Shown piece after piece: positions 7,415 through 41,135 of a DNA stretch of 64,000 nt. The position numbers were made by a program, and so were the translations under genes. Position 1 is the stretch's first letter. The number at the start of each line of letters is the position of its first letter. The notes under the pieces are model-generated. The model made no database searches and had not been told where the DNA came from. It was given only the letters and a program-made list of their open reading frames with translations. The stretch comes from a virus (lineage: Duplodnaviria; Heunggongvirae; Uroviricota; Caudoviricetes), in IMG/VR virus record IMGVR_UViG_3300020577_007897; one strand, given 5' to 3'.

Positions 7415-7611
7415 AAAGCCGCATTAAGAATACATGGGGCAAGTACTGGGCAGCTAACAATGAGTTTATTGAACAAGCTACCCAGCGCCATGTAGATAAT
7501 GCTGCTAAGTGTTCATGCTGGATGTGTGGACATAAGCGTAAAATCGAAGGAGCACCAATTCGTGAAAAACGAAAGCTCCAAGAAAAGATTAAGGACCAGC
7601 TAGATGAGTAA
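7387..7611 (+). CDS. hypothetical basic protein (CxxC pair)
   Basis: 74 aa; overlaps the upstream gene. Confidence 0.35.
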   Translation: MRKAKYQRVKSRIKNTWGKYWAANNEFIEQATQRHVDNAAKCSCWMCGHKRKIEGAPIREKRKLQEKIKDQLDE

Positions 7612-8056
7612 AGTAGTAATAGCTGGTTCTCGTGATTTCTTTGACGAAGAGATTGTGTTCAATGGTATTGAGCGCGCTCTTCGTCTTTTTCGTACGTACC
7701 CTACAGAAGTATTTTCTGGTAAAGCTAAAGGTGTTGATAGGCTAGGAGAGCTTTGGGCTTATAAGAATAACGTTCCTATCAAGCCATTTCCTGCTGCTTG
7801 GAAGACACATGGGGCAGCTGCCGGTCCTATCCGCAATGCGCAAATGGCTTTCTTTTGTGATTATGGTATTGTTTTTGTAAATGAAGATTCACCAAATGGC
7901 TCTCCTGGTTCAAGAGGAATGGCCAAATTGCTAGCACAACACAAGAAGAAAAACATTGTGTTCTATATAAAGGACCAGAAAGTACGTGCAGTCTATCTGA
8001 ATGGTGCCTATATTGATAGCAATGATGTTGTAGTTGACACTATATTTTTCTCATAG
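7604..8056 (+). CDS. SLOG/YpsA-like Rossmann-fold protein (DUF2493-like)
   Basis: N-terminal VVIAGSRDFFDEE, cf. YpsA AITGSR. 150 aa. Confidence 0.45.
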   Translation: MSKVVIAGSRDFFDEEIVFNGIERALRLFRTYPTEVFSGKAKGVDRLGELWAYKNNVPIKPFPAAWKTHGAAAGPIRNAQMAFFCDYGIVFVNEDSPNGSPGSRGMAKLLAQHKKKNIVFYIKDQKVRAVYLNGAYIDSNDVVVDTIFFS

Positions 8057-9185: not shown

Positions 9186-10226
9186 ATGTATGACTATCTC
9201 GTCTTTATTGGGCGATTCGCGCCCTACCATTCAGGCCACCATGCTGTGGTTTCTGAAGCTCTCAAAAGAACAAAGCATTTGATTATAGTGCTTGGCTCCG
9301 CAGGCCAACCTCGTTCTTTTAGAAATCCCCTCTTTACACACGAGCGCCGTGAAATTATACTTTCTACTCTTTTGGCAGAAGGTGTTGATACCGAGCGTGT
9401 CACGTTTGTAGAGGCTATTGATTATCCCTATAATGATGAAAAGTGGATTACCCAGATTCAATCTCTGGTTAATAGCGTTGTCTTTCGTAAGTGGCAAGCC
9501 GGCCCTGTAAAGGTTGGTCTTGTTGGATTTGCAAAGGACCATTCTTCTTACTACCTCAAGATGTTTCCTCAGTGGGATTCAGTTAACGTAGAAACGAAAA
9601 ATAAGTGCAACGCTACTGACTATCGTAATCGCTTCTTCCGTAAGTTTACTCCTGATGAATTGGTTGATCACTTCTATATCAATCCAGTTCATAAGCAGAA
9701 CGTTCTTTACTACTGCCAAAAGGCTGGTAAAGAAGGAATCTTCGAAGAAGCAGAGTATATCCACAATTACAAAATGTCATGGCAAGGCTCTCCTTTTCCT
9801 CCCACGTTTGTTTGCGTAGATGCTCTTGTTACACAATCAGGACATATTCTGGTTGTTGAGCGAGGACATTCTCCCGGCAAAGGCCAGCTAGCTCTTCCTG
9901 GCGGTTTCGTTAATCAGAACGAACGACTGAAAGATGCTGCTGTACGTGAGCTATATGAAGAAACTGGACTTAAGGTTCCCAAGCCTGTTCTATATGGATC
10001 AATTTCAGACTCTAAGGTGTTTGATGATCCACATCGCTCACAGCGCGGAAGAACTATTACACAGTGTTTCCACTTCCAGCTTGCTGATCAAGAAAAGCTA
10101 CCCAAAGTAAAGGGTGGTGATGATGCTGCTCATGCTTTCTGGATGCCTTTTGCTGATTATGTAAAGGGTCGTGAGAAATTCTTTGAAGATCATTTCGCCA
10201 TGATCGAAACAATGCTGGGATTCTAA
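9186..10226 (+). CDS. natV: bifunctional NMN adenylyltransferase / Nudix hydrolase (NadM-Nudix, KVP40 NatV-like)
   Basis: N-terminal nucleotidyltransferase HxGH motif (FAPYHSGHH). C-terminal Nudix box [23 protein letters not shown]. Confidence 0.85.
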
Positions 10227-10237
10227 GGAGAACTACA

Positions 10238-11590
10238 ATGTCTAATATTATTCTAAACACCGACTCTTACAAGATGTCGCACTTCTTGCAGTACCCTCCG
10301 CAGACTGCATTTGTGAATAGCTATATTGCTTCCCGCGGAGTAACTGATGTAACGATTGCAGGTAAGAATCCAGAGATCGTTAATCTGGGTCTGCAGATGT
10401 TCATTATGGAGTATCTGCAGAAACCTATTACAATTGATGATATTGAAGAGGCTCGTTATATTGCTCAGCTTCATGGCGTACCTTTTAATGAAGAAGGATG
10501 GATGAAGGTTCTGAAAAAGCATTCTGGTTTTCTTCCTATCGAGATTGAAGGTCTGCCTGAAGGTACTCCTGTACCTGTTGGAACTACTCAGTATCAGGTT
10601 CGTAATACTGATCCTGAACTTCCTTGGGTAACGAGCTATATTGAGACTGCATTGCTTCGCGCAATTTGGTATCCTTCTACTGTTGCTACTATCTCACGAG
10701 AGATTAAGAAGGACATCAAGTACTGGCTCGATAAGACTGCAATGGATACAGCTTCTGTTCTTCCGTTCCGTCTGCATGACTTCGGAGCTCGTGGTGTTAG
10801 CTCCAAAGAAGGTGCTGGTATTGGTGGTCTAGCTCATATTGTTAACTTTAGCGGTACTGATACTATCGAAGCCCTGCAGTATGCATTCCATTACTACTAT
10901 GCACATGGCATGCCTGCATTCTCTATTCCAGCTGCTGAACACAGCACTATTACAAGCTGGGGTAAGGAAAACGAGGCTGAAGCATATCGCAATATGCTAA
11001 AGCAGTTTGGTAAACCTGGTGCTCTAGTAGCTGTTGTATCTGACTCTTATGACATCTATAATGCTTGTGAAAAGATTTGGGGTGAGACTCTACATGATGA
11101 AGTACTTCGTACTGGCGCTACAGTTGTTGTTCGACCTGACTCTGGTTACCCTGTTACCGTTGTCAATAGGGTACTCGATATCCTGGGTGATAAGTTCGGT
11201 TATGTAGAGAATCAGAAGGGCTATAAGGTACTTAACTCTGCTGTTCGCGTTATTCAGGGTGATGGTGTAGACAAGCAATCTATTACTGGTATCCTAATGA
11301 CAATGGCAGAGAACGGTTGGTCTGCTGAGAACGTTGCATTTGGTATGGGTGGTGCTCTTCTGCAGAAGGTAAATCGCGATACATTCAAGTATGCCATGAA
11401 GGCTTCTGCTATCAAGAAGCAGAATGATATTTACTGGTCCGATGTATACAAGCAACCAGTAACTGATTCTATGAAGGTATCAAAGCGCGGTATTCAAACG
11501 GACGAAAGGTTCTTGACTTTCTATGAGAATGGTAATACAATGAATATTATTAGCTTTGATCAAGTTCGAGCGAATGCAGAAGTCAAATAA
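10238..11590 (+). CDS. nadV: nicotinamide phosphoribosyltransferase (NAMPT/NadV)
   Basis: 450 aa starting MSNIILNTDSYKMSHFLQYPP. Type II PRTase motifs are conserved throughout. Confidence 0.85.
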   Translation: MSNIILNTDSYKMSHFLQYPPQTAFVNSYIASRGVTDVTIAGKNPEIVNLGLQMFIMEYLQKPITIDDIEEARYIAQLHGVPFNEEGWMKVLKKHSGFLPIEIEGLPEGTPVPVGTTQYQVRNTDPELPWVTSYIETALLRAIWYPSTVATISREIKKDIKYWLDKTAMDTASVLPFRLHDFGARGVSSKEGAGIGGLAHIVNFSGTDTIEALQYAFHYYYAHGMPAFSIPAAEHSTITSWGKENEAEAYRNMLKQFGKPGALVAVVSDSYDIYNACEKIWGETLHDEVLRTGATVVVRPDSGYPVTVVNRVLDILGDKFGYVENQKGYKVLNSAVRVIQGDGVDKQSITGILMTMAENGWSAENVAFGMGGALLQKVNRDTFKYAMKASAIKKQNDIYWSDVYKQPVTDSMKVSKRGIQTDERFLTFYENGNTMNIISFDQVRANAEVK

Positions 11591-11753
11591 GGCCCATCAA
11601 ACACATCCAGCAGCAGTACTGTGCGGTAAGTGGTATTGTATCAACTGTGGTTTGATGAGACTTAACAACGAAGCAACAAGGAAAGCCTGGGAGAAAAACT
11701 GCCCAGGCTCTCCTGCTGATCAACCAGCAGATGTGAAAGTGATTAGAAAATGA
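11574..11753 (+). CDS. small Cys-rich (zinc-finger-like) protein
   Basis: CGKWYCINCG...CPGS. ATG at 11574 chosen over the track start at 11556. Confidence 0.35.
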   Translation: MQKSNKAHQTHPAAVLCGKWYCINCGLMRLNNEATRKAWEKNCPGSPADQPADVKVIRK

Positions 11754-12400
11754 AAGTACATTTTGGTAGATATCGCGAACATTGGATCTCTCCCTATAAG
11801 CTTCTTGAGAAGATTGTCTTTTGGAAGGATTGGGAGAAGTATCACGCTGAACATGAAGATGATGTCTGGTGGGTTGAAAAAGCAACTGATATTCTAGGCC
11901 CGCTTTGTCGCGGCTATAATAGCGTAATGGGTACTCTATTTCCTCGCAAGATCAAGGTTCGTATTGACCCCTGGGATACCTGGGGCATGTATAATGATCT
12001 AGCACTAATCATCCTGCCTATGCTTATTCAGCTTCAGAAGACTAAGCATGGTGCACCTTATGTTGATGATGCAGACGTGCCAGATGATCTTAAGAGTACA
12101 GCTGCTCCACCCAAAGAGAACGAATGGGATACAGACGATAATCATTTTAAGCGCTGGGATTGGATTCTCGCTGAAATGATCTGGGCGTTTGATTCTATTG
12201 TCAATGAGGATAAGTATGAAGATACTTTCTGGATCCAGCGCGGTGAAGGAATGCATAGCGAGAAGCGTGAAGACGGAAATTATGAAATTAAGTGGGGGAT
12301 TGAACCCAAGCTAGATCGCGAAAAGCGTGATGCGCATTATGCTCGTCAGGAAAATGGCCTCAAGCTATTTGGTAAGTATTACAGAGGACTATGGGACTAA
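11750..12400 (+). CDS. hypothetical Trp-rich protein
   Basis: 216 aa. Confidence 0.45.
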   Translation: MKVHFGRYREHWISPYKLLEKIVFWKDWEKYHAEHEDDVWWVEKATDILGPLCRGYNSVMGTLFPRKIKVRIDPWDTWGMYNDLALIILPMLIQLQKTKHGAPYVDDADVPDDLKSTAAPPKENEWDTDDNHFKRWDWILAEMIWAFDSIVNEDKYEDTFWIQRGEGMHSEKREDGNYEIKWGIEPKLDREKRDAHYARQENGLKLFGKYYRGLWD

Positions 12401-12906
12401 TGAATATTGAACTAATTACTCGTGACAATTGTGAGTTCTGTGCCAAGGCAAAAGAATTCTTGGCCATTGAGCAGATTGCATACTATGAATACAATCTGAC
12501 AAAAGGCGATATTACTCGCGATGAGGTATATGCCAAGCTAGGAAAGTCTACAGATGAAAAAGTTACTCTTCCTGTTGTTTTTATTGATACTGAGTATATT
12601 GGCGGCTATGTGGAGTTGGCTGAGTATTTTGCCGGGCTTGCTATAGAGCGTCAAGCACTAACAGAAGCACTTAAGAATGGAGTTTTACATCTTGAGTTCA
12701 TTAAAGCTGATGGTTCTCTTCGTAAGATGAACGCCACCCTAAATAAACATAAGATCTTTAATGACGATACGTTCTCTTCTTTCCGTGAGGAAGATGAGAA
12801 TAAAGGTTCACCACACAAGCTGTCTGTTTATGATATCGACAAAAGTGCTTGGCGTTCTTTTCGTTTTGATAGACTTAAGTCATGGAAACAGGTGGAATTG
12901 TCATGA
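12391..12906 (+). CDS. glutaredoxin-like protein with C-terminal extension
   Basis: N-terminal CEFC redox motif within a glutaredoxin/NrdH-like fold. 171 aa. Confidence 0.6.
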   Translation: MGLMNIELITRDNCEFCAKAKEFLAIEQIAYYEYNLTKGDITRDEVYAKLGKSTDEKVTLPVVFIDTEYIGGYVELAEYFAGLAIERQALTEALKNGVLHLEFIKADGSLRKMNATLNKHKIFNDDTFSSFREEDENKGSPHKLSVYDIDKSAWRSFRFDRLKSWKQVELS

Positions 12907-13325
12907 GTACAGGTATTACATTTGGCGCATGGGATCTTCTTCATGCTGGCCATCATCATTTTCTCCGCTCATGTGCAATGGAATGCGATGAATTCATCGT
13001 AGGCCTCCATATCGACCCTTCAATTGAACGACCTGATATTAAAGAAAAACCCGTGCAAGGTGTAATGGAAAGATACTGGCAGCTGCAGAATCTAGATTTT
13101 ATTGCTGCAATTATTCCATATGAAACAGAGAAAGATCTTGCAAATATTCTTGCAATGACTCAGCCTTTAGACTATTATTTCCTTGGTACAGATTATGCTC
13201 AAATTAAACTCCCTGAGCGTATTTATAATATACTTGATCACTTTGACATTGAGATCAAGTATATCCATCGTTTGCATGATTTTTCCTCAACCGATCTTAG
13301 AAAGAGAATTAGAGCTAAGAAATGA
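12903..13325 (+). CDS. sugar-phosphate nucleotidyltransferase, cytidylyltransferase fold (HldE domain II / TagD-like)
   Basis: FGAWDLLHAGHHHFL, i.e. (G)xFDxxHxGH. ATG 12903 overlaps the upstream stop as ATGA. Confidence 0.7.
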   Translation: MSTGITFGAWDLLHAGHHHFLRSCAMECDEFIVGLHIDPSIERPDIKEKPVQGVMERYWQLQNLDFIAAIIPYETEKDLANILAMTQPLDYYFLGTDYAQIKLPERIYNILDHFDIEIKYIHRLHDFSSTDLRKRIRAKK

Positions 13326-13939
13326 TTAAACCAAAGATTGTAACTGAACATCCGATTGCATATGAAAGTCATGATCATCTCGTTCCTAAGGGAACCGTGA
13401 ATGACAACACCAAGAACGAAGCTTATGTAAAGGAGCTCATCTCTCGCTTTGACGAGAATATGAAGTATATGGACCTGGGCTGTGCTGGTGGTGGCTTTGT
13501 AGCTCAGTTCCTAGAAAGAGGCGTATTTGCCGTAGGTGTAGAGGGTTCAGACCTTAACCAGAGAACCAAGAGAGCGGAATGGGCTGTGTGGCCTGATTAT
13601 CTGTTTACTGCAGATATCACTAAGCCATTTCACTTCGTAGATGAGGACGATCGTCAGATTTTATTTGAAGCTCTCAGTGCATTTGACGTACTAGAGCATA
13701 TTCATAAGCACGATCTTCCTAACCTAATCACCAATATCAATCGCAACCTGCGAATTGGTGGTGTGTTTGTAGCTTCTATTGCTACATTTGAAGATAAGGA
13801 CTATCACGTAACACTGGAAGAAAAGCCCTGGTGGAATGAGCAATTTGAAGCTCTTGGCTTCCGTGAGACCTGGACACTTAAGCAGTTTGGTCGCTGGTCT
13901 TCTATTTGCGTTGTATATGAGAAGGTAAGTGATGTATAA
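13322..13939 (+). CDS. class I SAM-dependent methyltransferase
   Basis: Motif I MDLGCAGGGF. 205 aa. Confidence 0.7.
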   Translation: MIKPKIVTEHPIAYESHDHLVPKGTVNDNTKNEAYVKELISRFDENMKYMDLGCAGGGFVAQFLERGVFAVGVEGSDLNQRTKRAEWAVWPDYLFTADITKPFHFVDEDDRQILFEALSAFDVLEHIHKHDLPNLITNINRNLRIGGVFVASIATFEDKDYHVTLEEKPWWNEQFEALGFRETWTLKQFGRWSSICVVYEKVSDV

Positions 13940-15032
13940 AAGCAATCAGAAGAAAGCAATTGTAACTGGTATTTCTGGTTACATTGCTCCTATTCTCTGC
14001 AGAATGTTGAAAGAGCAGGGGTACTTTGTCATTGGATGTGACGTCACTGCAGTTGGTGGTCGACTGGGCGATGCTCATAAGAAGTATGTTGACATTGTCA
14101 AGTACGTAGACTTCTGCAGTGATGAGTTTATTAAACTAATTAGCAATTATAAAGATGCAACAGTATTTCATTTAGCAGCCAGTTCACTGCTGGGGCCTTC
14201 ATTCTATAACCCTGAAGAATATTTCTTTAACAATACTGTCAAGACTTTTAAGCTGCTTGAATTCTTGAATCGTAATAGGTTCGGAAGATTCATTTTTGCT
14301 TCTACAGCAGCTGTATATTCTGAAAAGCAGATTAGAAAGTCTGTATGGAAGGGATTGTTTGGTCAAAATGATCTTGAACAGATGCAATACCCTGTCAAAG
14401 AGACTGATATCATCAACCCTCCCAACAACTATGGCCTATCCAAGTTGATGACAGAGCAGATGATTGATTCAATTACCAAAGCTCAAAATATCAACCATGA
14501 AGTATATGGCAAAACTAACTTGATGGAAGCTTTTTCATTCCGCTTCTTCAATGTCATCGGTGGATATGAAAATATGGGGCATCGTTTTGATACTCCTCAC
14601 ATTATGAGCCAGTTGATTGAGTCGTACCGTCTCTCTAATAGACCTTTCTATATCAATGGTGACAATTATAAAACTAAGGACGGTACTTGCGTAAGAGACT
14701 ATGTACATGTAATGGATGTTTGCCGCGCAATGATTCATGTTGATCTGTGGGCAGATGATCAAAATTTTCGCGAGGCTCGACACCTGAAGTTTAATCTTGG
14801 AACAGGTAAAGGTCATACCAACAAAGAAGTTGTTGATACTTTCTGTAAAATTACAAGCCCGCATATCGATAAGAAACCCTTTGATGTAAAGATGCGTGGT
14901 CCTAGACCCGGCGATCCTCCTTATCTGGTTGCAGACCCTAAACTCTTCATTGACACTACAGGCTTCACCTATAAATATTCAGATAATCTTGAATCAATGA
15001 TTGAAAGTGCATGGAGAGCATATAATGTTTGA
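13929..15032 (+). CDS. NAD(P)-dependent sugar epimerase/dehydratase (extended SDR)
   Basis: Rossmann motif TGISGYIAP; catalytic YGLSK (YxxxK). 367 aa. Confidence 0.75.
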   Translation: MMYKSNQKKAIVTGISGYIAPILCRMLKEQGYFVIGCDVTAVGGRLGDAHKKYVDIVKYVDFCSDEFIKLISNYKDATVFHLAASSLLGPSFYNPEEYFFNNTVKTFKLLEFLNRNRFGRFIFASTAAVYSEKQIRKSVWKGLFGQNDLEQMQYPVKETDIINPPNNYGLSKLMTEQMIDSITKAQNINHEVYGKTNLMEAFSFRFFNVIGGYENMGHRFDTPHIMSQLIESYRLSNRPFYINGDNYKTKDGTCVRDYVHVMDVCRAMIHVDLWADDQNFREARHLKFNLGTGKGHTNKEVVDTFCKITSPHIDKKPFDVKMRGPRPGDPPYLVADPKLFIDTTGFTYKYSDNLESMIESAWRAYNV

Positions 15033-16023
15033 AGAGAATGAAATCTCAGAAAAGTCAATGGGCGGTACAGAGCAATGCAAGCGCTCTATTGCTGCTAGAA
15101 TCCCAGCAGAACTAAACGATAACTTCCAGGTCATTTGCTCACGTGTTCGTGAATTGCAGAATGATAAGATTCGCGTGTATTGGGTGCACGATCTTGCTAC
15201 AGACCCAGAAACTAACCATCTCAAGGATGAAGCTTCAAGAGCTCGATTCCACAAAATTGTATTCTGTGGCAATTGGCAGTACAACCAGTACTTGCAGATT
15301 GGCGTCCCCCCAACCAATCAGGTAGCTGTAATTGATACGCCAATTGTCCCATTTGATATAAAGCCCAAGAAGTTTGATGATGGGAAGATCCGAATCATCT
15401 ATACATCAACTCCCCAGCGCGGTCTTTCGATGCTGGTACCTGTGTTTACCAAGCTGACAGAGAAGTACGAGAATATTCATCTTGATGTATTCTCTTCATT
15501 TGGCATCTATGGGTGGCCAGAGGCTGACAAGCAGTTTGAAGAAATCTATGCAATTTGTCGTTCGCATCCCCAGATTACTTACCATGGTTTCCAGCCTAAC
15601 GAAAAGGTTCGTGAAGCTCTGGAAAATGCGCATATCTTTGCATACCCATCAATTTGGCCAGAATGTAACTCTCGCTCTCTCATCGAAGCAATGAGCGCTG
15701 GTCTTCTTTGCTTGCATCCCAACTTTGCTGGTCTATCTGATACGTCTGGCAATCTAACTGCTATGTACCAGTGGGATGAAGACGGCAACAGACATATCAA
15801 CCTATTCTATCAGCTTCTTGATCAGTCAATTAAGATTGTGCAGGAAGAGCAAACTCAGAATTATCTGGCATTCGTTAAGGCGTACGCCGATACTAGATAT
15901 AGTATTGATAAAATTGCTGGCCAATGGCAGGACATGATGAGTGTATTGAACGCTCAGTATCCTACAGTTGAATCTCGAGCAATTCCTAAGTTTGAACCTA
16001 CCTTTATGTATCGAGCAGGATAA
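15025..16023 (+). CDS. glycosyltransferase (GT-B, GT4-like)
   Basis: C-terminal E..N.RSLIEAMSAGL motif (cf. EGFGLPLLEAMACG). ATG 15025 overlaps the upstream stop as ATGTTTGA. Confidence 0.6.
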   Translation: MFEENEISEKSMGGTEQCKRSIAARIPAELNDNFQVICSRVRELQNDKIRVYWVHDLATDPETNHLKDEASRARFHKIVFCGNWQYNQYLQIGVPPTNQVAVIDTPIVPFDIKPKKFDDGKIRIIYTSTPQRGLSMLVPVFTKLTEKYENIHLDVFSSFGIYGWPEADKQFEEIYAICRSHPQITYHGFQPNEKVREALENAHIFAYPSIWPECNSRSLIEAMSAGLLCLHPNFAGLSDTSGNLTAMYQWDEDGNRHINLFYQLLDQSIKIVQEEQTQNYLAFVKAYADTRYSIDKIAGQWQDMMSVLNAQYPTVESRAIPKFEPTFMYRAG

Positions 16024-17000
16024 TGATCGTCACTAAGACACCTCTGAGAATTAGTTTCTTTGGAGGCGGGTCTGACATTCCACAATTCTATAACAAGAAA
16101 CCTGGATTAGTCATTTCTACCTCTATTAACCGTTCTATCAAAATTGCTCTAAACCGATGTGAGACGGATCATGTCCGTCTCTCTTATTCAACGTTTGAGC
16201 AAGTGACCACAGCTGATAAGCTGAAGCACGATAGAGTACGTGAAGCTCTTCTTTCAAATGGCATTCAGTCCAATATTGAGATCACGTCGTTCTCAGACGT
16301 TCCTACTAAGGGAACTGGCCTGGGGTCATCTTCAACATTTACAGTTGGTCTTCTCAAGGCCATTCTTGAGCATAGAGCGTACACCTATAATAAGACCGAT
16401 CTTGCCGAACTGGCATGCGAAATAGAGATTGATAAGCTAAATGAGCCAATTGGAAAACAAGATCAGTATGCTGCTGCTTTTGGCGGCTTTAATATCATTG
16501 AGTTTGATAGCTCTGGTGTAGAGATTCGTCCTCTCAATCTCGGCCGTGATAAGATTAGAGAGCTTGAGAAGAACTTATACTGCTACTCAACTGGCATTAC
16601 TCGAGCTGCATCAGATGTGCTGAAGACACAAGTCAAATCGTTAGGCAAGAGCTCATCCACAACGTTTGAGAATACTTCCATCATGGTTGATATTGCCAAG
16701 CTAGCACATGTTCACCTGATGAAGGGGCGACTATCTGATTTTGGTGGCTTGCTTAATGAGACTTGGAATCTGAAGAAGAAGCTTTCGCCTGGCATGAGCA
16801 ATGCTACGATTGATGAAATGTACAAGACAGCTATAATGAATGGTGCGTTGGGAGGCAAGCTGCTGGGGGCAGGAGGAGGCGGCTATATGCTGTTCTATGT
16901 TCCTGAGAGCAACGAATTCAAATTCCGTGATGCTATGCGTCACTACAAAGAGTTCTATTTCAGGTTCACTGAAGAGGGGTCACAGTCATGGGTAATATGA
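16023..17000 (+). CDS. GHMP-family sugar kinase (HddA-like heptose-7-phosphate kinase candidate)
   Basis: GHMP motif PTKGTGLGSSST; C-terminal GxGGGG in KLLGAGGGGYMLFYV. Confidence 0.75.
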   Translation: MIVTKTPLRISFFGGGSDIPQFYNKKPGLVISTSINRSIKIALNRCETDHVRLSYSTFEQVTTADKLKHDRVREALLSNGIQSNIEITSFSDVPTKGTGLGSSSTFTVGLLKAILEHRAYTYNKTDLAELACEIEIDKLNEPIGKQDQYAAAFGGFNIIEFDSSGVEIRPLNLGRDKIRELEKNLYCYSTGITRAASDVLKTQVKSLGKSSSTTFENTSIMVDIAKLAHVHLMKGRLSDFGGLLNETWNLKKKLSPGMSNATIDEMYKTAIMNGALGGKLLGAGGGGYMLFYVPESNEFKFRDAMRHYKEFYFRFTEEGSQSWVI

Positions 17001-17581
17001 CCGATTATCTTGACTTTTATACAACAAATATTATATCAGCTCTTTCTAGAGTAGATACGCAAAAGGTTGAAGAAGCCTGCGATTTAATTCGTAGTAACTT
17101 ATATGCGCCTGTATTCGTATTTGGTAATGGTGGTTCTGCTGCCATTGCTGAACATTTCACAGTTGATTATAATAAAGGCATTTGGCAAGATACTAAAATC
17201 AATACTAGAGCGATAAGCTTAGTTTCAAATGTTTCTCTATTAACTGCATTAGCTAACGATACTAATTACGCATTTGTTTTCTCGAAACAAATCGATTCAT
17301 ATAATCCAAATGGTAATGGATTAGCTATTGCCATTTCATCTTCTGGCAATTCTCCTAATATATTAAACGGATTAGAAGCAGCTAAACGCAATAATATTAA
17401 GTCAATAGCTTTAGTTGGTTTTGATGGTGGTAACGTTAAAAGCAACAATTTAGCTGACGTTATTATACATGTAAAGAAGTATAATTATGGTATTGTTGAA
17501 GATACTCATATGGTTATACTTCATTCTATTATACAAAAACTTCGTTTAGAATATTCATTAGTTGGAGAACCTAAACTCTAA
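16988..17581 (+). CDS. gmhA: SIS-domain sedoheptulose-7-phosphate isomerase (GmhA-like)
   Basis: VFGNGGSAAIAEHF, ISSSGNSPN, VGFDGG and THMVILHSI align with E. coli GmhA (CGNGGS...HF, ISTSGNS, GKDGG). Confidence 0.85.
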   Translation: MGNMTDYLDFYTTNIISALSRVDTQKVEEACDLIRSNLYAPVFVFGNGGSAAIAEHFTVDYNKGIWQDTKINTRAISLVSNVSLLTALANDTNYAFVFSKQIDSYNPNGNGLAIAISSSGNSPNILNGLEAAKRNNIKSIALVGFDGGNVKSNNLADVIIHVKKYNYGIVEDTHMVILHSIIQKLRLEYSLVGEPKL

Positions 17582-17663: not shown

Positions 17664-18734
17664 ATGGCTAGAACTAAGCGAATTGATAAGTCTGAATTTG
17701 TTGTAATGGGTGATGAGCCTAATCTCAAAGGCAAGATTACCCGTATGCAGCTTTGTAATGCGCTTAACTGGTATAACCATTTCTATTCTGCTACAGTAAC
17801 CAAGCCTCGTAATCCCGATTGTGTAGGCTGGATTATTGAGTATATGAAGTCCAAGAAGTATACGCCTGCACAAATCAAAGCGTTTTCGTCTCTTTCTGAT
17901 AAAGAGATTCCGACTACTCTTTGTTCAATGGCACGTATGCTGAATCGTGGTGCTATTTTTGAGAACTCTCTTGATGAACGTATTCATCAGCTTCTCGAAA
18001 ACCTTAAGTACAAGAAGCCTGAGGCTAAAGTTGTTAAGGTTGAAGTAAAGCGTCCTAACCCTATCGTTATTCTGTTTGACAGCATTCTCGATAAGTTCTA
18101 TGATTCGAACTATCGCGTTATGCCTGATTTGACGAATGTCGAAATCTTTGGCAATAAGGAAGAGCATGCTTTTGCTAGCCAGCTCTATTCTGATTTGGCC
18201 GAAGAAGTAAAGGGTAAGGATCCTGAAGGCTATACTCATATTAGTGCTTTGGGTCTGAAGCGTTATCGTGAACTTCTCAATAACCTTAACGCTCTTCTGA
18301 ATAAGAAGAAGGTTCGTACTAAGTCTGGCAAACCTCGCAAGGTTCGTACTCCCAAAAAGAAATCTGCACAGCAGCTTACTGCTCTGCTTAAGTATAAGCA
18401 GGCTGAGAAGATTGGTAAAGATACGTTTGAAAGCGTTGATCCTGCGAAGATTCTCGAATCTACTGTGGTTTGGGTTTACAACAGCAAGAAGCGTTTGTTG
18501 ACTAAATACGTAAGCAATACTAGCCCGCTTACTGTTAAGCGCACCACGCTTGGTAACTTTGATCCCAAGCAATCTATGGCCAAGAAGATTCGTAAACCCG
18601 AAATTGTTATTGCACAAGTTGCAACTGAGGGTAAAGCTTCCGTAGCACGTCTGTTCAATAACATTAAAGCCAAGCCCCAGAAGGTTAAGGGCCGGATGAA
18701 CGATGATTCTCTAATCGTCAGGACGTTTCGTTAA
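17664..18734 (+). CDS. hypothetical basic protein
   Basis: RBS GAGGAG before the ATG. 356 aa, Lys-rich. Confidence 0.55.
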   Translation: MARTKRIDKSEFVVMGDEPNLKGKITRMQLCNALNWYNHFYSATVTKPRNPDCVGWIIEYMKSKKYTPAQIKAFSSLSDKEIPTTLCSMARMLNRGAIFENSLDERIHQLLENLKYKKPEAKVVKVEVKRPNPIVILFDSILDKFYDSNYRVMPDLTNVEIFGNKEEHAFASQLYSDLAEEVKGKDPEGYTHISALGLKRYRELLNNLNALLNKKKVRTKSGKPRKVRTPKKKSAQQLTALLKYKQAEKIGKDTFESVDPAKILESTVVWVYNSKKRLLTKYVSNTSPLTVKRTTLGNFDPKQSMAKKIRKPEIVIAQVATEGKASVARLFNNIKAKPQKVKGRMNDDSLIVRTFR

Positions 18735-18737
18735 GAG

Positions 18738-19232
18738 TTGATATACTACGTTTACGCTTATTTAAGAAAAAAGAACGGTGTCCCTTATTATATTGGTAAA
18801 GGTAAGGGACACCGTGCATATGCTAAGCATCCAGGAATAACAGTTCCTAAAGACAAGAACATGATTGTTTTTGTCGAAACGAACCTTACTGAGATGGGTG
18901 CTATAGCTATTGAACGTAGATTGATAAGATGGTATGGCAGAAAGAATATTAACACAGGTGTACTCTTAAACAAGACAGAAGGCGGCGAAGGCAATTCTGG
19001 TTTTACACATTCACAATACACCAAACAAAAAATTAGCCGCTCTAAAAAAGGTCAATCACCTTGGAATAAAGGCAAAAAGCTAACTGCAGAGCATATTAAA
19101 AAACTATCGATCTCTTCTACTGGTATGAAGCACTCAGAGGCTACCAAACTAAAAATTAGCGAATCAAATAAAGGTAGAGTTGCTTGGAACAAAGGTAAGA
19201 AGTGGTTCAAGAAGCAAAAGGCGCTAATATGA
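18738..19232 (+). CDS. GIY-YIG homing endonuclease with NUMOD3 DNA-binding repeats
   Basis: [21 protein letters not shown] (GIY...YIG). The C-terminus has repeated S/T-x-x-x-K-G-x-x-W-N-K-G-K-K. Confidence 0.8.
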
Positions 19233-25267: not shown

Positions 25268-26317
25268 GTGAATATGGCTGCTACTGCTAAGAAGACTGCT
25301 AAGAACGTTAAGTCTGTTAAGAAGGCTTCTAACGTCGTTTCTATTAAGAAGGGTAAGATTAAGGTCGAAACGGAAAAGGTTAAGGCTGAGCCTGCTCGTC
25401 TTATCTCCCCTTGGGGTCGTAACTCCACCGAATTTAAGACTGATATGTCTGTAAAGGATATGTTGGTTGAATCTGGTCTTGATTGGACTGTTGAACGTTA
25501 TCCTCTTCAGGTTAATGTCGATGGTGAAATGATTAATGTTGGCGAAGATGCTCTTCTTCGTTCTGACAATAACCATATTCTTTCGACTGCTTCCACTCAG
25601 TGGAACCATTTCGATAACGAAGTGGCTGTAGAGTTTATGGATAAGTTTGCTCGTTCTATTGGTAATCGAGTTAACTTCCTTGGCCAGGTTCGTGGTGGTC
25701 GATTGGTATTCGGCCTTTCGGAGCTTAAGGGCGAGAAGTTCGCTCTCTTTAAGGGTAAGGACGAAGTTTCGTCTTATCTGCTTCTTTCGAATCCTCATGT
25801 GTATGGTCAGAAGTTCGACGTTCGCTTTACTGCAATTCGCGATCGTTGTTACAATACTCTTACTCAGGGTCTTTCGCGAAACGGTGATCTCGAAGTTCGT
25901 ATTTCGCATCGCAAGAAGTTTGATCCGGCTTTTGCCGAGCAGGCGCTTATTGCTGCTCGCGGTAATATGAAGAAGTATCAGGAGATGTCGGAGCTTCTCG
26001 CTTCGAAGCGTTTCTCCGAAGATACTCTGATTGAGTATTACCATACCGTTTTCCCGACTCTTTCGAATAAGAAGGGTCGCGATCCCAAGAAGCTTTCGCG
26101 TCCTGGTCAGATGGCTTTTGACGTACTGGAAACTCAGCCTGGTGCTGAGCTTGGTGAGGGTACTTGGTGGCAGGTTTATAACTCTGCTACTTATGCTCTT
26201 GACCATCTTGTGGGTCGTTCGCCTGATAATCGTCTTTACGCTTCTTGGTACGGTTTGAACCGTGCGAAGAAGAATCAGGCTCTGCGTATCGCTTGTGAGT
26301 TTGCACAAGCTGCGTAA
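25268..26317 (+). CDS. Lys-rich N-terminus protein, possibly DUF932-like (phage/plasmid-like protein); strongly codon-biased
   Basis: 349-aa ORF with RBS AAAGGAAA. Third-position choice is extremely biased (GCT/CGT/AAG/GGT/TCT), which creates the mirror ORF on the opposite strand. Confidence 0.6.
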   Translation: MNMAATAKKTAKNVKSVKKASNVVSIKKGKIKVETEKVKAEPARLISPWGRNSTEFKTDMSVKDMLVESGLDWTVERYPLQVNVDGEMINVGEDALLRSDNNHILSTASTQWNHFDNEVAVEFMDKFARSIGNRVNFLGQVRGGRLVFGLSELKGEKFALFKGKDEVSSYLLLSNPHVYGQKFDVRFTAIRDRCYNTLTQGLSRNGDLEVRISHRKKFDPAFAEQALIAARGNMKKYQEMSELLASKRFSEDTLIEYYHTVFPTLSNKKGRDPKKLSRPGQMAFDVLETQPGAELGEGTWWQVYNSATYALDHLVGRSPDNRLYASWYGLNRAKKNQALRIACEFAQAA

Positions 26318-31430: not shown

Positions 31431-31591
31431 TTCTATTAGGACTGATTTTCGCAATATTAGTGTTGGTGTTTCTTGCAGTTATTATCTTCCGGGGCTACCT
31501 GAACGATGAAGCTATGCGAAAGCAAGAAGTTGAGAATGAAGTGAAGAAAGCCTTGAAGGCAATTAAGGAGAATGAAAATGGGAAGTCGTAA
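31427..31591 (+). CDS. small membrane protein (NfeD-like partner candidate for the SPFH protein)
   Basis: ATGA overlap; MILLGLIFAILVLVFLAVIIF. Confidence 0.35.
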   Translation: MILLGLIFAILVLVFLAVIIFRGYLNDEAMRKQEVENEVKKALKAIKENENGKS

Positions 31592-32447
31592 TGGTGTGTT
31601 TGCTCCTATCTTTGGTGCAATCGCAGTAGTAGCTACTATTATGTTGTTTTTTGGTACCTACTTCACAGTAAGTGAGAATGAGCGAGCAGTTCTGACTCGA
31701 TTTGGTCAGATTCAGTCAGTTCGCGACCCTGGTCTGCATTTCAAGTTGCCTTTCGTTAATAGCACTGCATTCTATCGCATTGACATTCAGGCAACTGGTC
31801 CTAAGCAGCCAGTGAATACGTATACGATTGATAACCAGGAAGTAGACGTTCTGTTTACTATCCACTATCGAATCGATCCTAAGAGCATTGAATTCATCTA
31901 TCGTAATGCTCAGGATTATCAGCCCCGTCTAGAAGCAATGGCTATTGACCGCTTGAAGGCTGAAATGGGTAAGATTAACGTAGCTCACGTTGCTGAAAAG
32001 CGCGGATTGCTTCGCGATTCAATCAAGAATGCAATTGCAGTTGATGCTCTTGAGAAGTATGGTGTAACGGTTGTTGACTTCCAGCTGACGAATCTTGAAT
32101 ATACCAAGTCGTTTAAGGCCGCCGTTGAAGCTGCAGCTGCTGCCAAAGCAAACGTTGAAACTCGTGAACAGGAACGTGTTCAAGCTCTCTTGACTGCAGA
32201 GCGTATGCGAGTTGAAGCAAAGGGTAAGGCTGACTCTTATCTCTTCGAACGTGAAGCTGAAGCTAAGGGTATTAAGTTGAAGGGTGAAGCTGAAGCTGCT
32301 GCTATTAAGGCACGTGCTGATGCTCTTGCTTCTAACGCCCAGCTTGTTGAACTTGAAAAGGCTCAGAAGTGGGATGGTCAGTTGCCCAAGCAGATTTTTG
32401 CTGGTGCACCTGTGCCCTTTATGCCAATTGATCAGGTGAAGAAGTAA
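31572..32447 (+). CDS. SPFH/band-7 (stomatin/prohibitin/HflC-like) membrane protein
   Basis: N-terminal TM, an SPFH core, and a C-terminal Ala/Glu/Lys-rich coiled coil. 291 aa. Confidence 0.7.
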   Translation: MKMGSRNGVFAPIFGAIAVVATIMLFFGTYFTVSENERAVLTRFGQIQSVRDPGLHFKLPFVNSTAFYRIDIQATGPKQPVNTYTIDNQEVDVLFTIHYRIDPKSIEFIYRNAQDYQPRLEAMAIDRLKAEMGKINVAHVAEKRGLLRDSIKNAIAVDALEKYGVTVVDFQLTNLEYTKSFKAAVEAAAAAKANVETREQERVQALLTAERMRVEAKGKADSYLFEREAEAKGIKLKGEAEAAAIKARADALASNAQLVELEKAQKWDGQLPKQIFAGAPVPFMPIDQVKK

Positions 32448-32596
32448 TGTCACGAAAGCATAAGGGAATGAATTATCGGCTCAAGGCACTTCGCCTTGAG
32501 CTTGATATCTCGCGAAAAGACCTTGATTGGTATCGCCGTAATAACAAGGATGTCGAGCTTGATCAGATCAAGCAGACTATAGTGGATGATGAATAA
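32447..32596 (+). CDS. small basic protein (49 aa)
   Basis: TAATG coupling with the SPFH stop. Absent from the ORF track. Confidence 0.3.
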   Translation: MSRKHKGMNYRLKALRLELDISRKDLDWYRRNNKDVELDQIKQTIVDDE

Positions 32597-33050
32597 GAAA
32601 AAGGCTATTCTGGTTGATGTGGATGGTACTCTACTCAACAACAAGCACCGCGAAGGATTCCTGAGAAGGCATCCTAAGCAGTGGAAGGATTACAACTACA
32701 ATATGAAGTTTGATACTCCTTACGATGATATCGTTTGGCTTGTTAAGACCCTTCATAAGGCTGGTTGTACAATTCTAATCTGTACTGCACGTCAAGATCA
32801 AGCCGATATTATCGAGACTACTCGTTGGCAGCTTGATGAAGTTTGTGGTCTAGAGGGCGTATACGAAAAGATCTACCATCGTGCTGCTGAAGACTATCGC
32901 GATGATACGGTTGTTAAGATCGATCTACTTGAGCAAATCAAGCTAGATGGATATGAGCCGTACATGGTACTTGATGATCGTAATAAGGTAGTTAAGGCTT
33001 GGCGCGATGCTGGCCTTCGTTGTCTTCAAGTTCAGGATGGAGATTTCTAA
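32586..33050 (+). CDS. HAD-superfamily phosphatase (T4 Pnk phosphatase-domain-like)
   Basis: ILVDVDGTLLNN (DxDGT motif I) ... LDDRNKVVKAW. Confidence 0.65.
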   Translation: MMNKKKAILVDVDGTLLNNKHREGFLRRHPKQWKDYNYNMKFDTPYDDIVWLVKTLHKAGCTILICTARQDQADIIETTRWQLDEVCGLEGVYEKIYHRAAEDYRDDTVVKIDLLEQIKLDGYEPYMVLDDRNKVVKAWRDAGLRCLQVQDGDF

Positions 33051-33229
33051 TGTCTAAAGAATATTGGGCAGGGTTGTTTATTATGGGCGCAGGCGGTGCT
33101 TTAATCGGAGTTGCCCTTAAACCAGACGCTTGGGCGGCCATTTCCGCCATACTTGGTTTGTTTGTAATTGATGTTGGCCATGCCATCTATAAGGATGCAA
33201 AGGACAAAGCGAAAAATGACCCTGCTTGA
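33050..33229 (+). CDS. small membrane protein
   Basis: ATG 33050 overlaps TAA. Sequence MSKEYWAGLFIMGAGGALIGV. Confidence 0.35.
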   Translation: MSKEYWAGLFIMGAGGALIGVALKPDAWAAISAILGLFVIDVGHAIYKDAKDKAKNDPA

Positions 33230-33443
33230 TTTCTTTGGTAAAGTAATGGCAACAGGTGGCTTTTTTACTGGTGTTTCATTCTTTCTTCTGCTAATCTTTG
33301 GCCAAGCTATTGTTGAAGCAGGTGATAAGAATGAAACAAACAAGAAGATTTCTAGCCAAGTTCTCGGCGGGCTTTGCTTTGCTTTAATTGGCGGTCTTGC
33401 ATTAATTACTGTAGGTAGTTTAGGATATATTTGGGCACGATAA
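33216..33443 (+). CDS. small membrane protein
   Basis: 75 aa with two TM helices. Confidence 0.35.
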   Translation: MTLLDFFGKVMATGGFFTGVSFFLLLIFGQAIVEAGDKNETNKKISSQVLGGLCFALIGGLALITVGSLGYIWAR

Positions 33444-33943
33444 TGAAAAAGACTCCTGTGTTTATTATGCTGTGTGGCTTGCCTGGTACTGGTAAGTCTA
33501 CCTGGGTCAATACCGAAGCAACTCTTCTGGACGATGAATTTGAGAACACCTATATCGTTTCATCAGACAATTTGCTGGAAATGGTTGGTCGTGAATACGA
33601 CCTGTCGTATAATCAGCTGTTTGGTGATGTGAGCTATATGGCTATTGAGCGCATGATGTATAAGGTGGCCAATAAGCTGTTTGAGCGACGCAATAACGTT
33701 ATTTGGGACCAAACTAACCTTTCGGTCAAGTCTCGTAAGCGCAAGATTGATATGGTTCCAGAAGGATACTATAAAGTGGCTGTAGTGTTCAACGAGCCTG
33801 CTGACCATATGGAGCGTCTCAATAAGCGCGCTCTTGCTGAAGAGAAAGTCATTCCAGAGTTTGTTATTGATAATATGAAGCGTATGTTCGTCAAGCCTAC
33901 GAAAGAAGAAGGCTTTGATGACGTGATTGAAGTGACAATGTGA
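33431..33943 (+). CDS. P-loop kinase (polynucleotide kinase-like)
   Basis: Walker A CGLPGTGKSTW, cf. T4 Pnk GCPGSGKST. 170 aa. Confidence 0.6.
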   Translation: MGTIMKKTPVFIMLCGLPGTGKSTWVNTEATLLDDEFENTYIVSSDNLLEMVGREYDLSYNQLFGDVSYMAIERMMYKVANKLFERRNNVIWDQTNLSVKSRKRKIDMVPEGYYKVAVVFNEPADHMERLNKRALAEEKVIPEFVIDNMKRMFVKPTKEEGFDDVIEVTM

Positions 33944-40586: not shown

Positions 40587-41135
40587 TTACGATAGGAATT
40601 TTCTGCAATTATTAAAATGATACCTACGCATGTTTGCAGAATATTTTTGAGTATGACCACAATGAGGACATGATATAATAGGGGCACTTGCATCTCTAGT
40701 TTGAGCTGCTTTTTTAATAGCCTGTCTACCTGCTGCAGACTTTTTAACCCCTATATTTGCTTTACCTGCTTTTACTTTATTAGCAATTTCTTTATCAGTA
40801 AACCCTTCTTTTTGTTTACGTTCATTGTATAACGCAAACCCCGGAGATGCGGCTTTTGCAACAGCATACATTCTTGCAGTAAAAATCCTATGCTGTTGTG
40901 GTCTTCCACACGCCATGCGCCAAAATGCATGAGCTATTTTAGGATTATTTGGATGTATTTTCCATAATAAATGATGTGCAACATAGTGTGCTTTAATAGG
41001 TAATAATACTAAATTTTCAGTACTATCATCACCGCCCATGCATTTAGGAAGTATATGATGTTTTTCTGCATATCCTTGTATTATAGAAAAACGATAGTGT
41101 TCAATTAGCTGTTTGTACTTTTTAACATAGTTCAT
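40587..41135 (-). CDS. HNH homing endonuclease
   Basis: EKHHILPKCMGGDDSTENLVLLPIKAHYVAHH. It is inserted between two genes of a minus-strand operon. Confidence 0.75.
   Translation of the reverse strand: MNYVKKYKQLIEHYRFSIIQGYAEKHHILPKCMGGDDSTENLVLLPIKAHYVAHHLLWKIHPNNPKIAHAFWRMACGRPQQHRIFTARMYAVAKAASPGFALYNERKQKEGFTDKEIANKVKAGKANIGVKKSAAGRQAIKKAAQTRDASAPIISCPHCGHTQKYSANMRRYHFNNCRKFLS

Follow-up and report, generated by a model that had tools for sequence, protein, structure and literature searches.

What does a T4-like phage do with a set of genes that resembles a pathway for a nucleotide-activated heptose? This question is raised by seven plus-strand open reading frames (ORFs), numbered g1 to g7, at positions 12391-17581 of a 64-kb stretch of viral DNA (IMG/VR record IMGVR_UViG_3300020577_007897; "the window" denotes this whole stretch). 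The constant element of the locus proved to be g5, a phage-specific glycosyltransferase (GT) located in the replication-module backbone of the genome, and the heptose genes are an interchangeable donor cassette. It is very probable that this cassette is a supply line of nucleoside diphosphate (NDP)-heptose that feeds g5, and the sugar product, judged from the enzyme families, would most likely be a nucleotide-activated, tailored glycero-manno-heptose. As to the acceptor of g5, phage DNA is the leading candidate, put forward tentatively and by analogy with known DNA-glycosylating phages. Folds, family relationships, synteny, cassette plasticity and the phage-restricted distribution were observed directly. 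The seven genes are listed below, with family matches in brackets.

12391..12906, plus strand: g1, glutaredoxin fused to WYL_2/DUF2693 (Pfam Glutaredoxin 3.6e-11, WYL_2 1.4e-13)
12903..13325, plus strand: g2, cytidylyltransferase-fold nucleotidyltransferase (PF01467 1.3e-9)
13322..13939, plus strand: g3, class I S-adenosylmethionine (SAM) methyltransferase, Methyltransf_23 (PF13489 1.1e-11)
13932..15032, plus strand: g4, extended short-chain dehydrogenase/reductase (SDR), GalE-like (PF01370 1.7e-33)
15025..16023, plus strand: g5, GT4 (GT-B) glycosyltransferase (PF00534 41.9 bits)
16023..17000, plus strand: g6, GHMP kinase, HddA type (NF049969 5.6e-53)
16988..17581, plus strand: g7, SIS-domain GmhA-like isomerase (GmhA models 1.5e-28 and 2.3e-28)

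From their domains, the set probably consists of one backbone NrdC/DUF2693 gene (g1) and six sugar genes (g2-g7). An earlier reading of this DNA from its letters alone (the sequence-only reading) had described seven contiguous plus-strand genes at 12391-17581, and the ORFs were found there as described, tightly packed and with overlaps of 1-13 nt between adjacent genes. The g1/g2 and g2/g3 junctions are ATGA, the g3/g4 and g4/g5 junctions are 8-nt overlaps, g5/g6 is TAATG, and g6/g7 is either ATGA or a 13-nt overlap, depending on the start of g7 (the alternative ATGA-coupled start is at 16997). The recorded gene calls start g2 at 12903 (140 aa; its frame is open from 12882) and g5 at 15025 (332 aa). 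The ORF at 11750-12400 overlaps g1 by 10 nt, so that the tight packing continues upstream and the seven genes do not make up an operon with sharp limits. The fold calls made from motifs hold for all seven genes, with concordant Pfam, NCBIfam and PHROG assignments. Of the motifs themselves, CEFC, YGLSK (the YxxxK of g4), PTKGTGLGSSST, GNGGS, SSSGNS and DGG are present, while the nucleotidyltransferase motif reads GAWDLLHAGH, with W for F, and the TGxxGxxG motif of g4 reads TGISGYIA, with A for the third G. The carrier is T4-like, as had been stated: gp59, gp32, T4 baseplate, gp53, RNase H, PhoH and DNA ligase genes lie within the window. The same genes, in unchanged order, were found in Caulobacter phage Cr30 and, with protein identities of 35-70%, in independent viral contigs numbering in the dozens, and the cluster is therefore far beyond chance. 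DNA searches at near and distant identity against 50,697 phage genomes returned only a short Cr30 match; hence, the phage itself is new.

The heptose logic that had been proposed for the cluster was borne out by the best matches of g7, g6 and g2 (GmhA, HddA and RfaE-II/cytidylyltransferase, respectively) and by relatives of the locus, which add a GmhB-type HAD and a transaldolase. In g7, the SIS_2 domain was recognized (PF13580, 1.7e-13), the GNGGS and SSSGNS loops align to GmhA structures, and the 13 best matches in the PDB are all phosphoheptose isomerases; the two NCBIfam GmhA models gave 99.9 bits (cut-off 276) and 99.2 bits (cut-off 209.45). The catalytic pair of GmhA we take to be Glu65/His180 (E. 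coli numbering). Aligned to 1x94, g7 keeps the C-terminal His and the His at the H61 position, and the position of Glu65 is Asp in g7 and Gln in its best PDB match, 5by2. For g6, the match to HddA is full-length (NF049969, 5.6e-53, 180.6 bits against a cut-off of 600; the fucokinase model reached 94), and both GHMP domains were detected (N-terminal PF00288, 4.5e-13; C-terminal PF08544, 1.1e-5) together with the PTKGTGLGSSST motif. Its top four PDB sequences, at 1e-39 to 1e-45, are the heptose kinases 3k85, 4n3o, 4usk and 4usm. The entry 4usk is WcbL, and 4ut4 and 4utg carry the identical sequence. The values were 9e-45 for 3k85, 1e-43 for 4n3o and 1.7e-39 for WcbL, as against 1e-17 for fucokinase and 8e-7 for galactokinase. 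From these matches we infer that g6 is a D-glycero-D-manno-heptose 7-phosphate anomeric kinase of the HddA type.

The nucleotidyltransferase g2 scores 38.8 bits with PF01467, above the cut-off of 21; its HxGH motif is HAGH, its C-terminal motif is FSST, and H14, G16 and H17 are invariant or nearly so in the family alignment. The best NCBIfam match was rfaE_dom_II (57.5 bits, cut-off 181.5), as against 29 bits for TagD, and in PHROG it matched phrog_7878, which is named 'heptose ... adenyltransferase' (7.9e-25). The STTR5 motif (F/L)xxGRSTT of NTP-promiscuous heptose nucleotidyltransferases is absent from the g2 family, whose consensus R-x-H-x-(F/Y)-S-S-T-x-L-R has an aromatic residue in place of the STTR5 Arg. 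We propose that g2 may act as a heptose-1-phosphate nucleotidyltransferase with ATP or CTP as the nucleotide; it is certainly not a GDP-type HddC. The remaining two donor genes would work on the sugar after or beside these steps. g4 is clearly GalE-like and not HldD-like (PF01370, 116 bits; TIGR01179, 189.9 bits with a cut-off of 262.3, as against 75 for HldD), its top PDB matches being all UDP-glucose 4-epimerases (best 5e-33). Hence, it is proposed to be of the GalE-like NDP-sugar 4-epimerase type, which might epimerize the NDP-heptose or might be a separate UDP-hexose epimerase. For g3 we propose the part of an accessory tailoring enzyme, putatively in O-methylation of the sugar.

We then analyzed how the cassette varies among relatives. 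A total of 66 GT-bearing loci, most of them syntenic with the window, were collected from IMG/VR (single loci are given below by L numbers), and 36 with adequate flanks were used for counting. A SIS gene was present in 31 of these, a GHMP kinase in 30, a nucleotidyltransferase in 28, an SDR in 23, any methyltransferase in 13, a HAD in eight and a transaldolase in five. In the first arrangement, type A, to which the window and Cr30 belong, the order is nucleotidyltransferase, methyltransferase or HAD, SDR, GT, GHMP kinase and SIS. In type B (L052, L053, L059, L061 and L065) it is nucleotidyltransferase, SIS, HAD, transaldolase, GT and GHMP kinase, and in type C the GT stands alone among genes for dCMP deaminase, ligase and RNA repair. 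The methyltransferase of the g3 type (Methyltransf_23) occurs in seven of the 36 loci, and other loci have TylF, a sugar O-methyltransferase, or Methyltransf_24 instead; with three unrelated methyltransferase families in this role, each in other lineages, O-methylation as an optional tailoring is a good fit. In L016, whose GT is 63% identical to g5, the order is nucleotidyltransferase, HAD, SDR, GT, GHMP kinase and SIS, so that a GmhB-like HAD stands exactly at the place of g3. The HADs of the relatives (L007, L016, L052 and others) are of the HAD-IIIA type and pass TIGR01662, and at the equivalog level GmhB ranks first or close to first among their matches, with 63-68 bits (cut-off 178). The transaldolase (L052:9192-10001) reaches 278.8 bits with TIGR02134, whose equivalog cut-off is 281.95, and in the five type B loci and also in L082 the transaldolase gene lies between the GmhB-like HAD and the GT. 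With the GmhB-like HAD and this near-cut-off transaldolase, the gene content of type B would therefore encode every step from central metabolism to NDP-heptose, and it suggests that the cyanophage-type transaldolase here supplies sedoheptulose-7-phosphate for heptose and not a general boost of the pentose-phosphate pathway. The heptose genes are thus a plastic donor-supply cassette inserted around a conserved GT.

Several results weigh against one heptose pathway. All six sugar genes have clear family matches, and all of them score below the NCBIfam equivalog cut-offs, the curated thresholds used as a strict membership test for named enzymes; g2-g7 are divergent relatives of these enzymes, not certified members of their families. 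With every equivalog-level score under its cut-off, we therefore infer the substrates of the sugar enzymes, and likewise the order of tailoring, the nucleotide used and the acceptor. The family of g2 is at least as close to TagD and ECT as to HldC by sequence: a profile of 34 family members run against the PDB gave 106 bits with ECT, 66 and 59 with TagD, 55 with HldC (5x9q) and 46 with 3glv, and the g2 orthologue in L016 scored 70 bits with TagD and 56 with RfaE-II. Three heptose-bearing loci (Cr30, L007 and L046) have no g2-type nucleotidyltransferase nearby. No GmhB is found in the cluster or the window, and the only HAD of the window (32586-33050) gives no NCBIfam GmhB signal. In addition, we know of no characterized precedent for a GHMP kinase of the alpha-pathway type working with a cytidylyltransferase-fold enzyme; the pairing of an HddA-type kinase with such an enzyme is a hybrid of two textbook pathways, a new combination. 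Of the family placements expected by the sequence-only reading, those of the kinase and the SIS isomerase stand, both being nearest to heptose enzymes, and the nucleotidyltransferase, called HldE-II/TagD-like, keeps its fold, scores highest with ECT in the family profile and cannot be called HldC-like in preference to TagD-like.

The same points bear on whether g2-g7 work together at all. They might be independent, co-located auxiliary genes, with g2 a TagD/ECT-like enzyme of CDP-glycerol or CDP-ethanolamine, g4 a plain UDP-Glc/Gal 4-epimerase as supplier of the GT, and g6 and g7 no more than a boost to the lipopolysaccharide (LPS) heptose of the host. The ranking of ECT and TagD above HldC in the g2 profile, the two L016 scores, the JGI name of the g2 homologues ('glycerol-3-phosphate cytidylyltransferase') and the clear GalE likeness of g4 all agree with this, as do the GTs of the group of Sinorhizobium phage phiM12 and of Stenotrophomonas phage DLP6, which occur without any heptose genes. 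Yet no GT-only locus has the nucleotidyltransferase, which occurs solely together with heptose genes (28/0/3/5 for both, nucleotidyltransferase only, heptose genes only and neither; Fisher p = 1.5e-4, phylogeny uncorrected), the genes are closely packed in a conserved order, with stop codons that overlap the next start, and a GmhB-type phosphatase and a transaldolase have been recruited into the same cassette. Furthermore, the product of an HddA-type GHMP kinase would not enter the HldE/ADP-heptose route of the host. We consider this reading of separate auxiliary genes highly unlikely.

As a source for the missing GmhB step, the HAD at 32586-33050 had been suggested. It was ruled out, since it is a phosphatase of the polynucleotide kinase/phosphatase (PNKP) type (PF25109, 1.8e-30). 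It lies near an AAA_33/zeta-toxin-like kinase (33443-33943), with a 90-aa ORF between the two, and the two (32586-33943) seem to make up a split polynucleotide kinase/phosphatase. Further along lies an ATP-dependent DNA ligase (36930-37796), and the PNKP-type phosphatase, the kinase and the ligase look like a nucleic-acid repair set.

The proposed route would then run as follows. The GmhA-like g7 would convert sedoheptulose-7-phosphate into heptose-7-phosphate and the HddA-type g6 would phosphorylate it at C1; the 7-phosphate, for which the window encodes no phosphatase, would be removed by the GmhB of the host, which is assumed; g2 would make ADP- or CDP-heptose, g4 and g3 would tailor the sugar, and g5 would pass it to an acceptor common to phages of very different hosts. 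This route overlaps with two known pathways and coincides with neither. With the GDP-D-glycero-alpha-D-manno-heptose pathway (GmhA-HddA-GmhB-HddC; Aneurinibacillus, Campylobacter and Burkholderia WcbL/N/M), which serves S-layer and capsule glycans, it shares GmhA-like and HddA-type best matches, a GmhB-type HAD in relatives and the SDR and O-methyltransferase tailoring genes alongside; in contrast, the window has the cytidylyltransferase-fold g2 in place of an HddC-type (NTP_transferase fold) guanylyltransferase, its SDR is GalE-like and not of the Cj1427/1428 type, it has no GmhB, its cassette belongs to a lytic phage and its transferase is specific to phages. The ADP-L-glycero-beta-D-manno-heptose pathway (GmhA-HldE/HldA+HldC-GmhB-HldD) has the nucleotidyltransferase fold and HxGH motif of g2, but the kinase here is GHMP and not PfkB/HldA, and the epimerase is not HldD-like (75 versus 190 bits). 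Nucleotidyltransferases that form CDP- and UDP-heptose have been described (Tang et al.; PMC11573728); g2 differs from them in lacking the STTR5 motif, and its scores are below the equivalog cut-offs.

Two cultured phages carry clusters close to this one. Cr30 has the same gene order, with 47% identity in the GT, 37% in the kinase, 46% in the isomerase and 32% in the SDR, and its genes are annotated as glutaredoxin, UDP-glucose 4-epimerase, GT, D,D-heptose 7-P kinase and phosphoheptose isomerase; unlike the window, it has no nucleotidyltransferase and no methyltransferase in the cluster. A 268-aa cytidylyltransferase-fold protein of Cr30, encoded far from its heptose cluster (L080:19556-20362, minus strand), was considered and rejected as a g2 orthologue. 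Also far from that cluster is an inositol-1-phosphate synthase gene (L080:41709-42890, minus strand, which is 54208-55389 of the Cr30 record; AGS81006.1). In the Synechococcus phage SynMITS9220M01, GT, HddA and GmhA stand in the same order and the kinase is 31% identical to g6, but the GT is from another family and the cluster is much larger; it has been annotated as "LPS AMGs" (auxiliary metabolic genes). Many related phages share the heptose module, and similar, uncharacterized clusters had already been annotated in these two phages. The newness claimed by the sequence-only reading for heptose modification in a T4-like phage therefore goes too far: besides these annotations, viral heptose enzymes have been noted, and heptosylated 5-hydroxymethylcytosine (5hmC) has been produced from an unrelated metagenomic phage gene cluster.

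The question of which gene anchors the locus led back to its first member. In g1, a glutaredoxin domain (residues 6-70, with CEFC) is followed by a WYL_2/DUF2693 domain, an Sm-like beta-barrel (residues 88-162). In phiM12 and many IMG/VR loci, nrdC and DUF2693 are separate genes adjoining the GT, in DLP6 the glutaredoxin adjoins the GT, and the glutaredoxin/DUF2693 pair is also present in GT-only loci without heptose genes. Since the pair is kept in those loci, g1 is backbone NrdC/DUF2693, and its former inclusion among the pathway enzymes is withdrawn: it is probably no sugar-pathway enzyme and is physically tied to the GT across the clade. The order in phiM12 is nrdC-DUF2693-GT-hyp-hyp-rnh-...-phoH, and the same backbone is found in the window; in "cyanophage-like" T4 phages (phiM12, Cr30 and DLP6) the GT has its position between nrdC/DUF2693 and rnh. 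A survey of alphaproteobacterial phages likewise names GT, GrxA, nicotinamide phosphoribosyltransferase and SAM decarboxylase as shared genes of the phiM12-type cluster. A SAM decarboxylase gene (PF02675) lies between DUF2693 and the cassette in 20 of the 36 related loci (e.g., L047:7907-8278), and it is absent from the window.

The glycosyltransferase g5 scores 41.9 bits with PF00534, above the cut-off of 26.4, and Glycos_transf_1 and the GT4 families were its sole family matches. A search at E <= 1e-5 gave 2,535 homologues, each of them from a phage-like or metagenomic source. In an alignment of 63 sequences with 60-77% identity to g5, 74 positions do not vary at all; a large part of the N-terminal (acceptor) half is among them, as are the two Glu of EX7E (E213 and E221). 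The AlphaFold2 model (pLDDT 90.4) is a GT-B fold with alternating beta/alpha halves, and no transmembrane segment is predicted. The cultured phages with a homologue are Cr30 (47% identity), DLP6 (46%), the phiM12/M7/M19/N3 group (35%), Ochrobactrum phage vB_OspM_OC and Rhizobium phage RHph_I1_18. Among 185,579 prokaryotic species, with one genome each, only nine GT loci were found; six are phage-like contigs with the order Grx-WYL_2-GT-rnh, and three are genuine bacterial GT genes, which have no common gene context. The search for an origin of the GT in bacterial polysaccharide loci yielded no more than these three genes. g5 is the phage-specific backbone gene that anchors the module; it is predicted to be a soluble GT4 enzyme of the retaining type, and it hardly occurs outside phages.

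This distribution bears on the usual reading of such genes, in which the host envelope is remodelled: the GT would add heptose to an LPS-core, capsule or exopolysaccharide intermediate on the cytoplasmic face, and the altered surface would block superinfection or the re-adsorption of released virions. It is the standing view in the literature of the heptose and GT genes of cyanophages and pelagimyophages. GT4 includes LPS-core enzymes, and the JGI label of the g5 homologues is 'UDP-glucose:(glucosyl)LPS alpha-1,2-glucosyltransferase'; the logic of HddA, GmhA, SDR and methyltransferase is that of capsular modified heptoses, and the GT-HddA-GmhA genes of SynMITS9220M01, whose GT shows no sequence similarity to g5, are embedded in a larger polysaccharide-like cluster. 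However, the GT, its acceptor domain included, is strongly conserved among phages whose hosts (Caulobacter, Sinorhizobium, Stenotrophomonas, Ochrobactrum and many uncultured ones) do not have the same envelope glycans, and the gene is nearly absent from bacterial genomes and in none of them within an LPS or capsule locus. The known LPS-core heptosyltransferases are GT9 enzymes, g5 is GT4, and no Glyco_transf_9 domain (GT9, WaaC/WaaF type) was detected in it. The cassette includes no flippase, polymerase, ligase or membrane-anchor genes, the GT has no transmembrane segment, and the carriers are lytic T4-like phages. We regard an envelope acceptor as doubtful.

The structural matches of g5 bear on two further readings. 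With the g5 model, Foldseek returned BshA, TarM, SdgB, HepE, SenB and PimA as the closest solved structures (probability 1.0 for BshA, TarM and PimA), and a search of BFVD returned only generic viral GT1/GT4 matches. The presence of BshA and SenB at or near the top would suit a soluble heptoside, comparable to the thiol- and selenium-sugars of BshA, MshA and SenB and possibly linked to the glutaredoxin, or else the NDP-heptose itself might be the functional product, as a metabolic sink, signal or anti-defence molecule. The linkage of glutaredoxin/DUF2693 and GT survives genome rearrangement in DLP6, the inositol-1-phosphate synthase is found in Cr30 as well, and it is acknowledged that the roles of viral NDP-heptose enzymes are not known. 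Nevertheless, genes for other steps towards a thiol cofactor (deacetylase, Cys ligase) are missing from the cassette, annotation and position both mark the glutaredoxin as NrdC, which serves ribonucleotide reductase as reductant, and the GT-only loci without donor genes point to the GT step, and not to NDP-heptose itself, as the conserved function. We hold a small-molecule product to be very improbable.

SdgB, TarM and GtfA, also among the best structural matches, together with a weak NCBIfam match to SdgA, would agree with protein glycosylation, that is, with the heptosylation of a conserved phage (virion or internal) or host protein, on the model of the SdgB/GtfA-type GT4 O-glycosyltransferases and of capsid glycosylation in chloroviruses and mycobacteriophages. 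A conserved phage acceptor of this kind would account for both the conservation and the phage restriction of the GT, and O-methylated rare sugars are common in surface-protein glycans. One of the bacterial homologues adds to this: the GT of Paraburkholderia sp. BCC1885 (39% identical; L088:9505-14379) adjoins two large TPR proteins whose C-terminal domains are GT9 (heptosyltransferase)-like, a combination characteristic of protein glycosyltransferases, and from these domains the locus is a possible protein-heptosylation system. It is the only place where GT9-like domains were found, and it is a single case, non-syntenic with Caballeronia, whose GT is 73% identical to that of Paraburkholderia and has a different gene context. 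Against a protein acceptor, the cassette is placed among genes of replication and nucleotide metabolism and not next to structural genes, no Ser/Thr-rich candidate acceptor was identified, and no late promoter is conserved upstream of the GT, so that we consider this acceptor rather unlikely. A T4-type late promoter motif, TATAAATA, does occur 48 nt upstream of the GT; it was dismissed, since its eight occurrences in the window, against 5.2 expected, do not exceed chance and only four of 55 relatives conserve it.

Phage DNA as the acceptor of g5 is the possibility to which we give the first place, tentatively. If it applied, the DNA would be glycosylated after replication, as an anti-restriction hypermodification. 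The neighbours of the heptose cassette are genes of replication and nucleotide metabolism (RNase H and DNA ligase, and dCMP deaminase in 19 loci), a setting of the GT that suggests a DNA acceptor, and a GT that stays fixed while its sugar diversifies would agree with an arms race against restriction systems. Two systems serve as analogies. Phages of the RB69, DLP3 and HY126 type arabinosylate cytosine derivatives in their DNA with an SIS isomerase, a kinase, a HAD, a nucleotidyltransferase and a GT4-like enzyme (PMC13326640). The five-step logic of isomerase, anomeric kinase, phosphatase, nucleotidyltransferase and GT-B is shared with the present module, as are the MshA/PimA/BshA-like structural neighbours of the GT, the T4-like carrier and the nucleotide-metabolism gene setting; the differences are that the sugar here would be a heptose and not a pentose, that the kinase and the nucleotidyltransferase are from other families, that no dCMP-hydroxylating enzyme like thymidylate synthase (TS) was found here, and that the present module is known from its genes alone. 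In the second system, a metagenomic phage gene cluster termed 'contig 53', mono- and di-heptosyl-5hmC were made (bioRxiv 10.1101/2023.12.21.572611). It has in common with the window a cytidylyltransferase, a GT-B with BshA/MshA/PglH-like neighbours and, as proposed for the window, the transfer of heptose. It uses a HAD/APH bifunctional enzyme and heptose-phosphate of the host, whereas the window has its own GmhA and GHMP kinase, and it has cytosine-methyltransferase/TET-type 5hmC genes beside it, of which none was found here, though they were not directly searched for. DLP6, whose GT is 46% identical to g5, is listed in a review table as 'DNA is restriction enzyme resistant'.

The following points count against a DNA acceptor. 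The restriction resistance of DLP6 may have a cause other than its GT, and DLP6 has no heptose genes. The dCMP/dUMP hydroxymethylase that the sequence-only reading had proposed to look for was not found: the 64-kb window has no gene of the TS (ThyA) family, and in about 80 loci there was none up to 10 kb from the GT. The Fe(II)/2-oxoglutarate (2OG) oxygenases of DLP6 have homologues in only two loci, and TET/JBP-type enzymes and cytosine-C5 methyltransferases were not directly searched for. The ThyA of Cr30 is canonical (GIPYN), and DLP6 has ThyX and only generic Fe/2OG oxygenases. In addition, g5 shows no sequence similarity to the arabinosyltransferase of RB69. The isoelectric point (pI) of the GT, 5.5, was dismissed as an argument against DNA binding, since that of the RB69 DNA arabinosyltransferase is 6.3. 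The full claim, that a clade of T4-like phages, very large and for the most part uncultured, with about 2,500 GT homologues, heptosylates or O-methyl-heptosylates its own DNA by means of the phage-specific GT4 enzyme and self-encoded ADP- or CDP-heptose and without a TS-type hydroxymethylase, is on balance unlikely to hold.

The heptose and GT genes of T4-like phages are usually filed as "LPS auxiliary metabolic genes", a label with no test behind it, and virus-encoded heptose enzymes are reported to be widespread. If DNA is the acceptor, the module would be a new and environmentally abundant hypermodification that matters for restriction evasion, for sequencing bias in metagenomes and as a source of enzyme tools. 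Self-DNA heptosylation without a TS-type hydroxymethylase would moreover imply a new route to the acceptor base or a new glycosylated base, would be the first physiological use for NDP-heptose made by a cytidylyltransferase, and would tie the cyanophage-type transaldolase AMG to the sugar supply of DNA modification. With a protein or the envelope as the acceptor, it would be a new and widespread instance of heptosylation directed by phages. For NDP-heptose biochemistry, the hybrid of an alpha-pathway kinase and a cytidylyltransferase-fold enzyme is of interest too. The module is approachable in cultured phages, with the full cassette in Cr30 and the GT only in DLP6 and phiM12.

Other features of these genomes were also recorded. 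In DLP6 (L073:4061-7957), which has no heptose genes, a Methyltransf_23 gene, a 'nucleotide-diphospho-sugar transferase' gene and a GT29-like ORF lie upstream of the glutaredoxin and the GT, which suggests a multi-sugar, methylated glycan; this methyltransferase beside the GT has only marginal similarity to g3. Directly upstream of the cluster, the window has an NAD+ salvage pair, consisting of a fusion of NadR-like nicotinamide mononucleotide (NMN) adenylyltransferase and Nudix (9186-10226) and a nicotinamide phosphoribosyltransferase (10238-11590), and DLP6 carries the same pair. Just downstream of the cassette, the gene at 17664-18734 encodes a basic (pI 9.9), Lys-rich protein of 356 aa (phrog_11903) with no Pfam match. 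Its homologues have the same position after the GT in Cr30, L046 and L086, phiM12 has a hypothetical gene of similar size at the equivalent position, and the gene is a conserved backbone neighbour of the GT. A GIY-YIG-like ORF (18738-19232) is inserted between two backbone genes; the other putative mobile or homing endonuclease genes are HNH_3 (1703-2203) and a TnsA-like gene (47529-48008, minus strand), and there is a weak HNH_4 match at 40587-41135 (minus strand). The early-region accessory genes encode a YspA/cpYpsA-related protein of the SLOG family (window coordinates 7604-8056), a DUF932 protein (25274-26317) and an SPFH/Band 7 protein (31572-32447).

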